From positions 2,792,001-2,856,000 of the forward strand of contig JASTWF010000033.1 of assembly GCA_030390025.1 (NCBI GenBank): 64,000 nt of DNA, written 5' to 3'. Below the pieces are notes generated by a model. It was given only the letters and a program-made list of their open reading frames with translations, ran no database searches and was not told where the DNA came from. Position 1 is the first letter of the stretch. Every line of letters begins with the position of its first letter. This stretch comes from Squalus acanthias. Taxonomy: Eukaryota. The position numbers were made by a program, and so were the translations under genes. Shown piece after piece: positions 38,390 to 58,589 of the stretch.

Positions 38390-39305
38390 AGGACCCTCGT
38401 GATTTTGAACACCTTTATCAGATCTCCGCGCAAACTTCTCTGCTCTAAGGAGAACAACGACAGCTTCTCCAGTCTATCCACGTAAATGAAGTCCCTCATA
38501 CCCCGAAACATGCTTGTGAAACTTTTCTGCCTTCACATCCTTCCTAAAATGTTGTGCCCAGAATCCTCCACCTGAGGCCGAACCAATGATGTATAAATGT
38601 TTAGCATTACTTCCTTGCTTTTGTACTCTATGACTCTATTAATAAAGATGATGTGGAGATGCCGGTGTTGGACTGGGGTGGAGAAATGTGAGAAGTCGCA
38701 CACCACCAGGTTATAGTCCAACAGCTTTATTTGAAATCACAAGCTTTCGGAGCGGCTGCTCCTTCGTCGGGTGAAGAAGGTCACCTGATGAATGAGCAGC
38801 GCTCCGAAAGCTTGTGATTTCAAATTAAGCTGTTGGACTATAACCTGGTGTTGAGCGACTTCTCCCATCTATTAATAAAGCCAAGGATCCCGTATGCTTT
38901 TCAACAGCCTTCTCAACTTGTCCCGCCACCTTCAAAGATAGATCAATCTTTGGTAAATCCAGGTCTCTCTGTTCCTGCACACGATTTAAAATTATACCAT
39001 TTAGTTTATATCGCCTCAGTTCAATCTTCCGCCCAAAATGGATCACTTCACACTTCTCTGTTAAATTCCTTCTGCTATTTCTCTGCCCATTTCACCACTC
39101 TGTAAATGTCCTCATGAAGTCTGTTACGTTCTGTCTCATTATTTAGTACATTTCTGAGTTTCCTGTCATCTGCAAACTTTGAAATGATGCCCAGTATTCC
39201 CAAGTCCAGGTCATTAATATATATCAAAAAGAGCAGTGATCCTAAAACCGACCCCTGGGGAACACCACTGTATACTTCCTTCCTGTCTGAAAACTAACCG
39301 TTCAC
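38390..39305 (-). mobile_element. CR1 fragment hosting a Penelope-like hairpin (paralog ~48360-49315)
   Basis: LEKLSLFSLEQR.LRGDL ORF 38323-38511; colinear with 48670-49310. Confidence 0.75.
38648..38867. mobile_element. Penelope-like hairpin insertion with hammerhead motif
   Basis: Imperfect palindrome ~38690-38864; TSD tctattaataaag (38635-38647, 38868-38880); empty site near 48920; tcac-CTGATGA...GAAA-gctt-gtga at 38781-38817. Confidence 0.85.
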
Positions 39306-39994: not shown

Positions 39995-40066
39995 GAACTC
40001 GTGGCGCAACGGTAGCGCGTCTGACTTCTGATTAGAAGACTGCGTGTTCAAATCACGTCGGGGTCA
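39995..40066 (+). tRNA. tRNA-Trp-type body with anticodon changed to TCT
   Basis: gaactcgtggcgcaacggtagcgcgtctgacTTCTgattagaagactgcgtgttcaaatcacgtcggggtca; A and B boxes intact. Confidence 0.8.
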
Positions 40067-40757: not shown

Positions 40758-40831
40758 GCCCGGCGAGCTCAGTCGGTCAGAGTGTGAGACTCTTAATTTC
40801 AGGTTCGTTGGTTCGAGCCCCACGTTGGATG
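40758..40831 (+). tRNA. tRNA-Lys(CTT), degenerate
   Basis: gcccggcgagctcagtcggt..gagactcttaat..ggttcgagccccacgttgg. Confidence 0.82.
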
Positions 40832-41306
40832 ATAGCATTTTGTTAAAATTTTGTGTTGCTTTCACGGGAAAGCTTCATTAATTAACGGATAATCTTCTTT
40901 TGCACAATGAAAGAAATGCTTACTGAGGGAGAGTCGGTAGTTCAATAATTTGTTTTGCACTTTGCATGTTAACTGTTGCCCATATCTCATTTTACACACT
41001 GGACTTCAGGAGTCTGGCTTAAAAATGTGCATTGTTGATGACACCAGGAATCTGGGGCAACTATTGTCAAATTTATCAGGACCGGTTATTTCTACCGTGT
41101 ACAGAAAATAGAATCAATAGTGAACATAAAACCTCATTGTGCTGAATTTCAGATTCAACGCAGTCACCTTTGAAATAAAGGGAAATTATTTTACAGTGAA
41201 AAGATTGGGAAGTAAGTGTTACTCGTATTTGTGCCTTTAATTAAAGGTTGTGGCGTCTGACTCCCGTTCATATTTCTTCTTCCTCTGTTGAATAACAAAG
41301 TGGGAA

Positions 41307-41359
41307 TGACGTTGACCAGACTGCACTCGCCCTGATGTGTGTGAGCTCATCCTTATATT
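41307..41359 (+). promoter_or_regulatory. Candidate upstream elements of vault RNA (CRE-like TGACGT 41307-41312; TATA-like ttatatt 41353-41359)
   Basis: Positions about -76 and -28 from the RNA start; TGACGT is also present upstream of the 30864 copy. Confidence 0.45.
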
Positions 41360-41382
41360 GAGCGGTTTCTCAACATTTGACC

Positions 41383-41472
41383 GACGTCAGCTTTAGCTCA
41401 GCGGTTACTTCGTAGTACCAACTTAATTCTAAGTTCGAACCCTCTCTCACCGCGGGCGCTGCTTGGCGTTTT
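41383..41472 (+). ncRNA. Vault RNA (vtRNA), apparently intact
   Basis: GCTTTAGCTCAGCGGTTACTTCG (vault box A region), GTTCGAACC box B, CCGCGGGCGCT, terminal stem ACGTCAGC/GCTTGGCGT, TTTT terminator. Confidence 0.88.
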
Positions 41473-42606
41473 ATTGTCATTTACAACCCCCTGCTTTTAC
41501 ACCGAAACAAATTGTAACGGTGATTTCAATTTAGCTGTGTGAGATTTTTAGAGGGCAACTTTAAACGATTCATTGCCGATTCCTGTCAGCATTACGACCC
41601 GTGTTCGAATCCCGATTATAGAATTAACTTTGATATCAACGTTTTTAATTAATTAATGCGAAGTAATTTTATTAAATTACAAACATGCATCTAATGTGAA
41701 AAATAAGAATTGTTTTAATGACCATTATTGAACCAATAACTTTCTGTTGCAGAATGAAATACATTATAATATGGTTACTGAGGGACAGTCAAAACTTCAG
41801 TCATTTAATTTGCTCTTTGCCTGTGCTGAACTGTTAACCTATATCTCATTTTACACATTGTACTTTAGGAGAATGTTTTAAAATGTTCATTGGTTGTGAG
41901 AGCAGGGCTCTGGGGTAACTTTTGTCATTTTAACAGGACCGGCTATTTCACATAAAAAAAATTCTCTGACATAATGTTTTCAGACCATACACTGATCGAT
42001 TTTCTTAGGCCCCAAGTGGATGATCTGACACTTGCCCACGTTCAACTCCATTAATTGCTGTTCAGGGGAGATTTAATAGAACTGTTCAAAATTATGGGGG
42101 AAACTGTTTCCACTGGCAGGAGGGTCAGTAGGGCTGTGGGGGAAGAGCAGCGGAGTGGGACTAATTGGATAGCTCTTTCAATGATGCTGCATCAATTGTT
42201 CATTTTAATCTGTGATTGATAGATTTTTGTTAACCAAAGGTATTAAGGGATAATTCAAGTCTGTGAGACACTTTATAATTGATTCAATCATCATTAATCA
42301 ACACACAACATTGTGTTGCACACTGCATGAATTGTTAACAAGTTTACTGGGTGACAGCCAAAATTGAATAACCTATTATAGAATCATAGAATCATACACC
42401 ACTGAAGGAGGCCATTTTGCCAATAGTGCCTGTGCCGGCTCTTTGAAAGAGCAATTCAATAATTCCCACTCCCCAGCTCTTTTTCCAAAGACCTGCAAGT
42501 GTTTCTTTTTCAATGTATTTCCCTTTTGAAAGTTAATATTGAATCTGCTTCCACCACCCTGTCAGGCAGAATATATATGTACATCAATGTTATCCAAGTC
42601 CCATTT

Positions 42607-44143
42607 AACATAGAAACATAGAAAATAGGTACAGGAGTAGACCATTCGGTCCTTCGAGCCTGCACCGCCATTCAATGCGTTCATGGCTGAACATGCTACC
42701 TCAGTACCCCATTCCTGCTTTCTCGCCATACCCCTTGATCCCCTTAGTTGTGAGTGTTATATCTAACTCCCTTTTGAATATATTTAGCGAACTGGCCTCA
42801 ACAACCTTCTGTGGAAGAGAATTCCATAGATTCACCACTCTCTGGGTGAAGAAGTTCCTCCTCAGCTCAGTCCTAAATGGCTTCCCCTTAATCCTTAGAC
42901 TGTGACCCCTGGTTCTAGTTTTCTCTACCATTGGGAACATTCTGCCTGCATCTAATTTGTCTAAACCAGTCAGGATTTTAAATGTCTCTATAAGATCCCC
43001 CCTCATTCTTCTGAACTCCAGAGGATACAAGTTCAGTTGACCCAATCTTTCTTGATATGTCAGTCCGGCCATCCCAGGAATCAATCTAGTGAACCTTCGC
43101 TGCACTCCCTCAATAGCAAGAATATCCTTCCTTAAGTTAGGAGACCAAAACTGCGCACAATACTCCAGGTGTGGCCTCACCAAGGCCCTGTACAACTGTA
43201 GCATCACCTCCCTACTCCTGTACTCAAATCCCCTTGCTATGAAGGCCATCATTCCGTTTGCTTTCTTGACTGCCTGCTGCACTTGCATTTCCACCTTCAG
43301 TGACTGATGTACCATGACGCCCAGGTCTCGTTGCACGTCCCCTTTCCCTAATCTGCCACCATTCAGGTAATAGTCCGCCTCTCTATTTTTACCACCAAAG
43401 TCGATAACCTCACATTTATCCACATTGTACTTCATCTGCCATACATTTGCCCATTCACCCAACCTGTCCAAGTCACTCTGTAGCCTCCTAGCATCCTCCT
43501 CATTGTTCACACTGCCTCCCAATTTAGTGTCATCCGCAAATTTGGAGATATTACATTTAATCCCTTCGTCCAAATCATTAATATATAATGTAAACAGCTG
43601 GGGTCCCAGCACCGAACCCTGCGGTACCCCGCTGGTCACTGCCTGCCATTCTGAAAAGTACCCATTTACTTCTACTCTTTGTTTCCTGTGTGCCAACCAG
43701 TTCTCAATCCACGTCAACACATTACCCCCAATCCCATGTGCTTTAACTTTTTCACCAATCTCTTGTGTGGGACCTTGTCGAAGGCCTTCTGGAAGTCCAA
43801 ATACACCACATCTACTGGTTCCCCCCTGTCCAGCCTATTGGAAACATCCTCAAAAAATTCCAGAAGATTTGTCAAGCATGATTTCCCTTTCACAAATCCA
43901 TGCTGACTTGGACCTATCATGTCGCCACTTTCCAAATGGTCTGTTATGACATCTTTAATAATTGCTTCCATCATTTTACCCACGACCGATGTCAGGCTGA
44001 CCGGTCTATAATTCCCTGCTTTCTCCCTCCCTCCTTTTTTAAAAAGAGGGGTTACATTGGCCACCCTCCACTCCATCGGAACTGATCCAGAGTCTAAGGA
44101 ATGTTGGAAAATGATCGTCAATGCATCCACTATTTCCAAGGCC
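42607..44143 (-). mobile_element. Young 5'-truncated CR1 LINE inserted in cassette copy B
   Basis: ORFs 43714-44139 and 42701-43720 (one frameshift) with RT motifs; absent from the paralog near 32320 (cccatttcacacag). Confidence 0.92.
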
Positions 44144-44723: not shown

Positions 44724-44806
44724 TGTCAGAAGTGGGATTCGAGCGCACGCCTCCAGAGAAAACTGCGACTTGAACACAGCACCTTAGACCACTCGGCCAT
44801 CCTGAC
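44724..44806 (-). tRNA. tRNA-Leu (CAG-type body, anticodon reads CAA), degenerate
   Basis: Reverse complement gtcaggatggccgagtggtctaaggtgctgtgttCAAgtcgcag...gctcgaatcccacttctgaca; B box mutated. Confidence 0.82.
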
Positions 44807-47539: not shown

Positions 47540-47611
47540 GACATCGTGGCGCAACGGTAGCGCGTCTAACTCCACATCAGAAGGCTGCGTGGTCAAATCA
47601 CATCGGGGTCA
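47540..47611 (+). tRNA. tRNA-Trp(CCA), degenerate
   Basis: gacatcgtggcgcaacggtagcgcgtctaactccacatcagaaggctgcgtggtcaaatcacatcggggtca; B box mutated. Confidence 0.82.
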
Positions 47612-48060
47612 CTGTTGTTTACGATAATCCCGGAATTAATATTTTATTTGCTGTTTCACCAGAACCTTGCTCCAAAGACTGTCTTACTGTTTCCCCAGTG
47701 TCAGGGAAAGAATCGCCAGAATTCCTCATTTATTTAATATGACAAGACACAAGCACAGGTATACGTTCAAAATCAACCTGCAGGTGGCCACACACAGAAT
47801 AAAGAGAGCCAGAGAGACAGACAAAATCGGGAAACACCGGGAAACAGACAAGAGATATTGAGAAGGAATGAAAGCGCTTTGAGATCAGAAAATTGCCTGA
47901 AACCCTGTGGTTAATGAAAGGGCTTTTGATGCTTGATTTCCTTACACACCTTGGAATTCAGGAGAACCTGGCTCGTGGTTTGCAGAACAAGTTAAACCCC
48001 TGGGGCGGAGCCACTAGGCGCCTGGCTGCAATCAGAGACAAGGACGTACGAGCTTGTCAG

Positions 48061-48135
48061 GCCCGGCCAGCTCAGTCGGGAGAGCCTGAGACTCTTAATC
48101 TCAGGGTCGTGGGTTCGAGCCCCAATAATTGGGCG
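48061..48135 (+). tRNA. tRNA-Lys(CTT), degenerate
   Basis: gcccggccagctcagtcgggagagcctgagactcttaatctcagggtcgtgggttcgagcccc..ttgggcg. Confidence 0.85.
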
Positions 48136-48354
48136 AATGCTGTTTGTTAAACATGTATGCTGCTTCCACGGGAAAGCGTCATTAATTAACCGATAACCTT
48201 CTTTTGCTCAATGAAAGAAATGCTCACTGAGGGAGGGTCGATATACAATAATTTAATTTGTGCTTTGCATGTTACTCATATCTCATTTTGTCAAATTGAA
48301 CAGGACCGGATATTTCTACCGAACACAGAAAATAGAATCAGCAGTGAACATCAA

Positions 48355-57924: not shown

Positions 57925-57996
57925 GGTTCCATGGTGTAATGGTGAACACTGTGGACTTTGAATCCAGCGATCTGACGTCAAATCTCAGTAGGACCT
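57925..57996 (+). pseudogene. tRNA-Gln(TTG), degenerate
   Basis: ggttccatggtgtaatggtgaacactgtggactttgaatccagcgatctgacgtcaaatctcagtaggacct. Confidence 0.82.
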
Positions 57997-58517: not shown

Positions 58518-58589
58518 TGTTCCATGGTGTAATGGTGATCACTCTGGACTTTGAATCCAGTGATCTGATTTTAAATCTCGGTGGAACCT
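58518..58589 (+). pseudogene. tRNA-Gln(TTG), degenerate B box
   Basis: gttccatggtgtaatggtgatcactctggactttgaatccagtgatctgattttaaatctcggtggaacct. Confidence 0.82.

Follow-up and report, generated by a model that had tools for sequence, protein, structure and literature searches.

A vault RNA (vtRNA) gene of a 90-nt subfamily was confirmed at 41384..41472 (forward strand) of the window, a 64,000-nucleotide stretch of Squalus acanthias DNA. In the reading that we prefer, with a probability of roughly 70%, this gene is one of approximately 250 motif matches in the genome, and the family has likely expanded through duplication of DNA that also carried neighbouring tRNA genes, has undergone birth-and-death evolution and includes some copies that are transcribed by Pol III. 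The function of vault RNA has been in question for a long time, and the vtRNA genes of vertebrates are described as few and tied to the protocadherin locus, where synteny with ZMAT2 and the protocadherins has been reported (PMC7058938). Vault Rfam hits number 9 in human and 2 in chicken, with a bird median of 0 (PMC4378963), 12 vault hits are given for killifish (PMC5584509), and a deuterostome-wide survey (Stadler 2009, as cited in PMC7058938) arrived at 'more than 100' vtRNAs in total. Up to about a dozen copies in the other vertebrates surveyed contrast with the approximately 250 motif matches in tRNA arrays found here.

Analysis of the window gene with the Rfam Vault model (RF00006), the check that the first-pass annotation had proposed, gave a score of 58.5 bits (E 1.4e-10; gathering score 34). 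The gene adopts the vault panhandle fold with a z score of -2.39, and 4 of 200 shuffled sequences folded equally well. Inspection of the sequence identified box A (TAGCTCAGCGG, 41394-41404), box B (GTTCGAACC, 41433-41441), a closing stem and a T4 terminator (TTTT, 41469-41472), all on the forward strand. Upstream on the same strand are a CRE-like palindrome (TGAGCTCA, 41342..41349, -42 to -35), a TATA-like box (TTATATT, 41353..41359, -31 to -25) that has one T deleted relative to sibling copies, and a distal motif (TGACGTTG, 41307..41314, about -77) that is the same in the majority sequences of all three subfamilies; these three are putative promoter elements. The motifs listed by the first-pass annotation, among them box B, the closing stem, the TTTT and the CRE-like and TATA-like motifs, were all found, with two corrections of detail: the gene is real but starts at 41384 instead of 41383, and the conserved 3' motif is present (41449-41460) but reads ACCGCGGGCGCT and not CCCGCGGGCGCT. 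The same box A and box B, conserved ends, panhandle, T-run and CRE-like and TATA-like upstream elements characterize vertebrate vtRNA genes (RF00006; locus and promoter background in PMC7058938 and PMC7904556), and a CRE-like element near this position has been described for vtRNA promoters (PMC7058938, PMC7279448). In a comparison of 12 genes of this genome, drawn from the array, inside-cluster and canonical sets, stem pairing was retained in 93.8% of cells compared with 31-53% in slid controls, and two stem pairs were altered on both sides in a compensatory manner, a result for which the relatedness of the genes limits the shuffle control. A 5'/3' panhandle with covariation, as expected of a vault RNA, is thus present.

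A second, decayed copy had been proposed in a paralogous cassette, and this proposal was borne out at 30865..30954 (forward strand), where the Rfam score is 40.8 bits and likewise exceeds the threshold of 34. Damage in this copy affects the closing stem, box B, the TATA-like box and the terminator, and its fold (z 0.04) shows no vault panhandle. The older cassette that carries it (30288..32331, forward strand) shares 82-91% identity with 40800-42613, so that the two vault-bearing cassettes of the window, separated by 10.3-12.6 kb, are paralogous. A third, truncated cassette (47540..48289, forward strand) contains a Trp-like (47540-47612) and a Lys-like (48061-48124) sequence with no vault gene after them. 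Within the cassette of the intact gene, a forward-strand tRNA-Trp(CCA)-derived gene whose anticodon is now TCT lies at 39995..40066; ARAGORN labels it Arg, an assignment that we reject because the sequence matches intact tRNA-Trp at 67 of 72 positions. It is followed by a decayed tRNA-Lys(CTT) (40758..40830, forward strand; 65/73 identity to an intact copy; Rfam tRNA 35.5 bits). Downstream in the cassette is a decayed tRNA-Leu (44724..44806, reverse strand), and a LINE (reverse transcriptase) fragment (42607..44140, reverse strand) has been inserted between it and the vtRNA gene. Trp(CCA)-derived genes whose anticodon has shifted (to TCT, CCC or CCT) are found repeatedly in the 90-nt cassettes, where they are mis-called Arg or Gly, and one Lys-derived gene reads CGT. 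Several smaller features were also observed: a tRNA 3'-half remnant with a box B (GTTCGAATCC) approximately 100-140 bp 3' of the vault gene (about 41570-41615); a spacer element of approximately 230 bp, 74-77% alike between copies, that flanks the vault gene on both sides (40876-41092 and 41723-41949) and is also found in the paralogous cassette; near-perfect inverted repeats of approximately 190 bp inserted into cassettes (31455-31653 and 38686-38868); and two decayed tRNA genes with a TTG anticodon (57925-57996 and 58518-58589) that form a separate local duplication.

Searches of the 3.71-Gb genome demonstrated that the family extends far beyond the window. An exact 21-mer from the 5' end returned 140 genomic matches and a 26-mer with up to 3 mismatches returned 251, with none for either reversed control; these counts may be inflated by redundant scaffolds and deflated by collapsed arrays. 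A 201-bp query of gene plus promoter returned 387 candidates, and the best 40 of the 387, which were scored, are each at least 91% identical to it. Four large contigs (C7, C21, C26 and C29) together hold 45 of the 140 exact matches, C1 holds two and C3 holds one; the other 92 lie outside these six contigs and, among the matches listed, on contigs shorter than 7 Mb. The suggestion of a multi-copy vtRNA family inside shark tRNA arrays is thereby upheld for the one genome examined, with approximately 250 near matches and more copies than had been guessed. Other, more divergent vtRNAs may exist, since only 49 candidates were scored in the genome-wide Rfam search and the canonical genes described below were not among its hits. 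On C29, two vault copies of the 89-nt type have an 18S rRNA-like fragment (L069:1-843) a few kb away.

The array family consists of three subfamilies with genes of 88, 89 and 90 nt, two of which reside in a tRNA-Trp/tRNA-Lys/vtRNA cassette. A tree was built from 85 of 95 copies (69 distinct sequences), leaving out two fragments and eight copies without the shared promoter. The array copies form a single clade (100/100) beside copies located inside the protocadherin cluster. Support is 99/98 for the 89-nt subfamily, 99/97 for the 88-nt subfamily and, for the 90-nt subfamily, 97/62 with the decayed window copy and 98/88 without it; the intact window gene is placed in the 90-nt clade. The 88- and 90-nt types have 1.8 kb of cassette in common (-802..+975, 83% identity), while the 89-nt type shares only about -270..+188 with the other array types. 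Sequence resembling tRNA occurs within -820..+980 of 32 of 36 copies of the 88-nt type, 25 of 41 of the 90-nt type and 8 of 20 of the 89-nt type. In the 88-nt cassette the order is Lys(-)/Trp/Lys/vtRNA/Val(-), the tRNAs are intact (65-69 bits), and the vault genes reach the highest Rfam vault scores of all copies (63.6-66.4 bits). The 90-nt type includes tandem units of approximately 6.26 kb with 99.0-99.6% mutual identity; in the locus of such units that was scanned, the vault gene reaches 62.5 bits, compared with 33.1 for the sole Rfam tRNA match. Copies on C21 and C26 are 99% identical across 9.4 kb. Since promoter and flanks travel with the copies, we infer that they spread as DNA. The cassettes, the kb-scale common flanks and the 6.26-kb tandem units support the earlier proposal that vtRNA was co-amplified with tRNA genes.

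The window copy itself lies away from the ZMAT2-protocadherin locus, and this genome also possesses vtRNA genes at that locus. The protocadherin cluster occupies C3:196.65-198.68 Mb, and 60 kb past its 5' end lies an exon of ZMAT2 that agrees with a PDB ZMAT2 chain at 24 of 24 residues. As at the vertebrate VTRNA1 locus, three genes were found in the interval between ZMAT2 and the cluster (C3:198.718-198.724 Mb): L114:8013-8107, L115:811-915 and, on the reverse strand, L115:3700-3804. These canonical genes are of a distinct sequence type, measure 95, 105 and 105 nt and score 60.4, 52.5 and 51.5 bits, respectively. The first is single-copy and has the best fold of the copies (z -3.27). Box B in the canonical genes is non-consensus (GTTCGGGTC, GTTCGTGGT), and the second gene has no T4. 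Within the 2.1-Mb cluster region, of which approximately 250 kb was scanned, eight decayed vtRNA copies of the 89-90-nt type were identified (L071:2771-8447, L091:8982-9855 and L092:658-747; C3:197.477-197.495 Mb), none of which keeps all tested elements. A protocadherin exon adjacent to these copies is most similar over its full length to sequences from sharks and elephant shark (about 58-68% identity), the other vertebrates listed reaching 34-51%, in keeping with a cartilaginous-fish genome. Inside-cluster and array copies have the upstream promoter region in common, with homology extending up to about -237..+127. Together with the tree, this suggests that the array family descends from the ZMAT2-protocadherin locus by way of sister inside-cluster copies; the direction of movement, from cluster to tRNA array, is assumed from known synteny, the tree offering no rooted test. 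Because the three canonical and approximately 250 array sequences are distinct systems within one genome, small-RNA reads should be assignable by their loop, and reads assigned in this way could tell which of the vtRNA classes are expressed, in what places, and which are incorporated into vaults.

To describe decay, 97 array copies among the first 100 exact matches listed were used, a sample picked only on an intact 5' end. All tested elements (CRE-like, TATA-like, box B, 3' motif and T4) are kept in 41 of the 97, distributed as 19/36 copies of the 88-nt type, 18/41 of the 90-nt type and 4/20 of the 89-nt type. Intact vtRNA is thus not confined to the protocadherin locus, the distribution that the first-pass annotation had set against its own proposal. 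The remaining 56 lack at least one element despite having been sampled on an intact 5' end. Derived alleles per site within subfamilies amount to 0.43-1.0 in box B and the 3' motif and to 0.41-0.63 in spacers; since the gene motifs decay at least as much as the spacers, most copies are not individually selected. Comparison of the three subfamily majorities gave a different picture. Varying sites number 0/25 in the 3' part, 1/9 in box B and 0/23 in the promoter motifs, versus 64/229 (28%) in the flanks and 6/18 in the loop. For the non-ascertained motif sites together (1/57 versus 64/229 in flanks) the combined p is 1.4e-6, a value inflated because the promoter motifs were chosen after the alignments had been viewed; the 3' stem alone (0/25) differs from the flanks with p=4.6e-4. 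The conserved 3' motif is fixed across subfamilies although it holds several CpGs. Because promoter motifs, box B and stems were fixed while flanks and loop drifted, the source genes were probably under purifying selection.

The vtRNA gene had also been described as better preserved than the surrounding tRNAs, and this holds for part of the family. Comparison of the 88-nt with the 90-nt majority gave differences at 7 of 73 sites in tRNA-Lys, 83 of 816 in the spacer and 0 of 41 in the vault 3' half (p=0.04 versus tRNA-Lys, 0.014 versus spacer), in favour of the description for the 90-nt lineage. It does not apply to the 88-nt subfamily, in which the tRNAs are also intact, nor to the window copy alone, whose gene departs from its subfamily majority (4 of 89 sites) much as its spacer does (14 of 440). 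Selection acting on the window copy itself was rejected on these figures. The four gene changes leave both boxes untouched and the stems kept; the window copy could be active and yet is an ageing and probably dispensable member of the family. The genome shows a non-tRNA Pol III gene that has persisted in tRNA arrays after the adjoining tRNAs decayed.

Two copies on C1, L072:4764-4957 and L073:4727-4902, are promoterless chimeras that begin at vtRNA +1. L072 consists of vtRNA nt 1-45, which agree with five 88-nt copies at 45 of 45 positions, followed by a dispersed repeat of approximately 150 bp, an inverted twin of which lies just upstream. In L073, nt 2-41 match fourteen 90-nt copies; the vtRNA part has an internal deletion and extends to the T-run terminator, where it is fused to the 3' end of a LINE. 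We take this LINE to be of the CR1 type; its ORF encodes a reverse transcriptase domain. The vtRNA-LINE pair sits inside another repeat, and its insertion site is empty in approximately 20 other listed copies of that repeat. U6-L1 chimeras, which arise by template switching during LINE reverse transcription, similarly join the 5' end of a Pol III RNA to a LINE 3' end, differing from the present ones in that here a vtRNA and a presumed CR1-type LINE are involved and only two cases were found. By this analogy, L073 is the outcome that would be expected of a LINE switching template onto vtRNA. The chimeras therefore point, indirectly, to past or present transcription of both subfamilies in the germ line, although they are two cases only and DNA capture is possible. 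Contigs from four of five runs, the RNA nature of which is only guessed (shares 0.11-0.22), aligned to one 88-nt copy with its flanks and covered the flanks and promoter, some with 0-2 differences and under two organism labels from two studies. One of them enters the last 34 bases of the gene and none spans it, so these alignments have no bearing on expression either way. Some array copies are likely transcribed by Pol III.

Such retro-type chimeras raise the question of whether the whole family is a SINE or a set of processed pseudogenes spread by retroposition. This is extremely improbable: the upstream promoter and 0.4-1.8 kb of common flanks are retained in almost every copy, the copies are clustered in arrays and have no common tail, and the chimera type accounts for two of the 100 listed exact matches. 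A SINE origin was rejected for the bulk of the copies on account of their common upstream flanks. It is more plausible, though still unlikely, that the vtRNA was passively caught in a self-amplifying tRNA-array unit, with array copies silent or irrelevant and the ZMAT2-linked canonical genes doing the work. The seemingly neutral decay of subfamily members, the window copy included, would fit, as would the damage in 56 of the 97 sampled copies; the intact canonical L114 gene could meet all vtRNA need, and the intact tRNAs of the 88-nt cassettes could be what amplification was selected for. Such a passenger would not be expected to keep stems and promoter motifs fixed over three subfamilies while 28% of flank sites differ, to outscore the remaining tRNA match in the 6.26-kb units, or to yield chimeras that begin at vtRNA +1.

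At the opposite extreme, and very unlikely in our estimation, the array copies would have become the principal vtRNA source, supplying a high dose under joint regulation with the tRNA arrays, as might happen in oocytes, and perhaps acting outside vault particles. That the top Rfam scores belong to 88-nt array copies, that all eight inside-cluster relatives are damaged, and that the canonical genes combine a non-consensus box B with one missing T4 speak for this takeover, whereas the per-copy decay argues against strong selection for copy number and the best fold belongs to canonical L114. Also unlikely is the idea that the main vtRNA output shifted from the protocadherin locus to the tRNA arrays; if true, vtRNA would be made at high dose, as tRNA is, by a multigene family with hundreds of members and a promoter type of its own, active in the germ line and perhaps working without the vault shell.

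The preferred reading, duplication with tRNA genes followed by birth and death, can be laid out as a sequence of steps. From the ancestral ZMAT2-protocadherin locus, which holds the three canonical genes and the eight decayed inside-cluster copies, a segment of approximately 350-450 bp with an inside-cluster-type gene and its promoter would have been copied beside a tRNA-Trp/tRNA-Lys pair, as the tree and flank homology suggest and with the direction assumed from synteny. Tandem and segmental duplication of the resulting cassette may then have produced the arrangement of three subfamilies observed today, between which promoter motifs, box B and stems are statistically fixed whereas flanks and loop have drifted, as have the tRNAs of the 90-nt lineage. 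Pol III would read intact copies from box A, box B and the upstream elements to produce a panhandle RNA of 85-90 nt, which would bind TEP1 and vaults like other vtRNAs.

Known systems resemble this family in part. Rodent 4.5SH RNA genes are also Pol III type-2 genes with a CRE near -50 and a TATA-like box, and they too are repeated hundreds of times, in tandem units of 4-5 kb (PMC7279448); their sequence is unrelated, and the dogfish units differ in also holding tRNA genes, in lying in arrays on several chromosome-scale contigs and in forming three subfamilies. The tRNA tandem repeat at human 1q23.3 (PMC4041453) is likewise a kb-scale tRNA-gene unit of variable copy number; the start of its abstract mentions no vault gene, whereas in some of the units described here the vault gene has survived longer than the tRNAs. 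Full-text literature searching found no paper on vtRNA amplification in sharks, and an array vtRNA family of this tRNA-linked, birth-and-death type appears unreported in the literature searched; Stadler 2009, supplements or database annotations may list some of the copies.

Vault partners were also sought in the genome. The MVP Pfam domains PF11978, PF17794 and PF01505 gave no match genome-wide in a search with no working positive control, a result that an assembly gap or a limit of the search may explain. TROVE-domain exons other than those of Ro60 are present on C114 and C3333 and, by elimination, probably belong to TEP1. These TEP1-like exons (L173-L177 at C114:38-78 kb and L180 on C3333) occur as partial duplicates, nearly identical to one another, that are surrounded by very long arrays of minisatellites.
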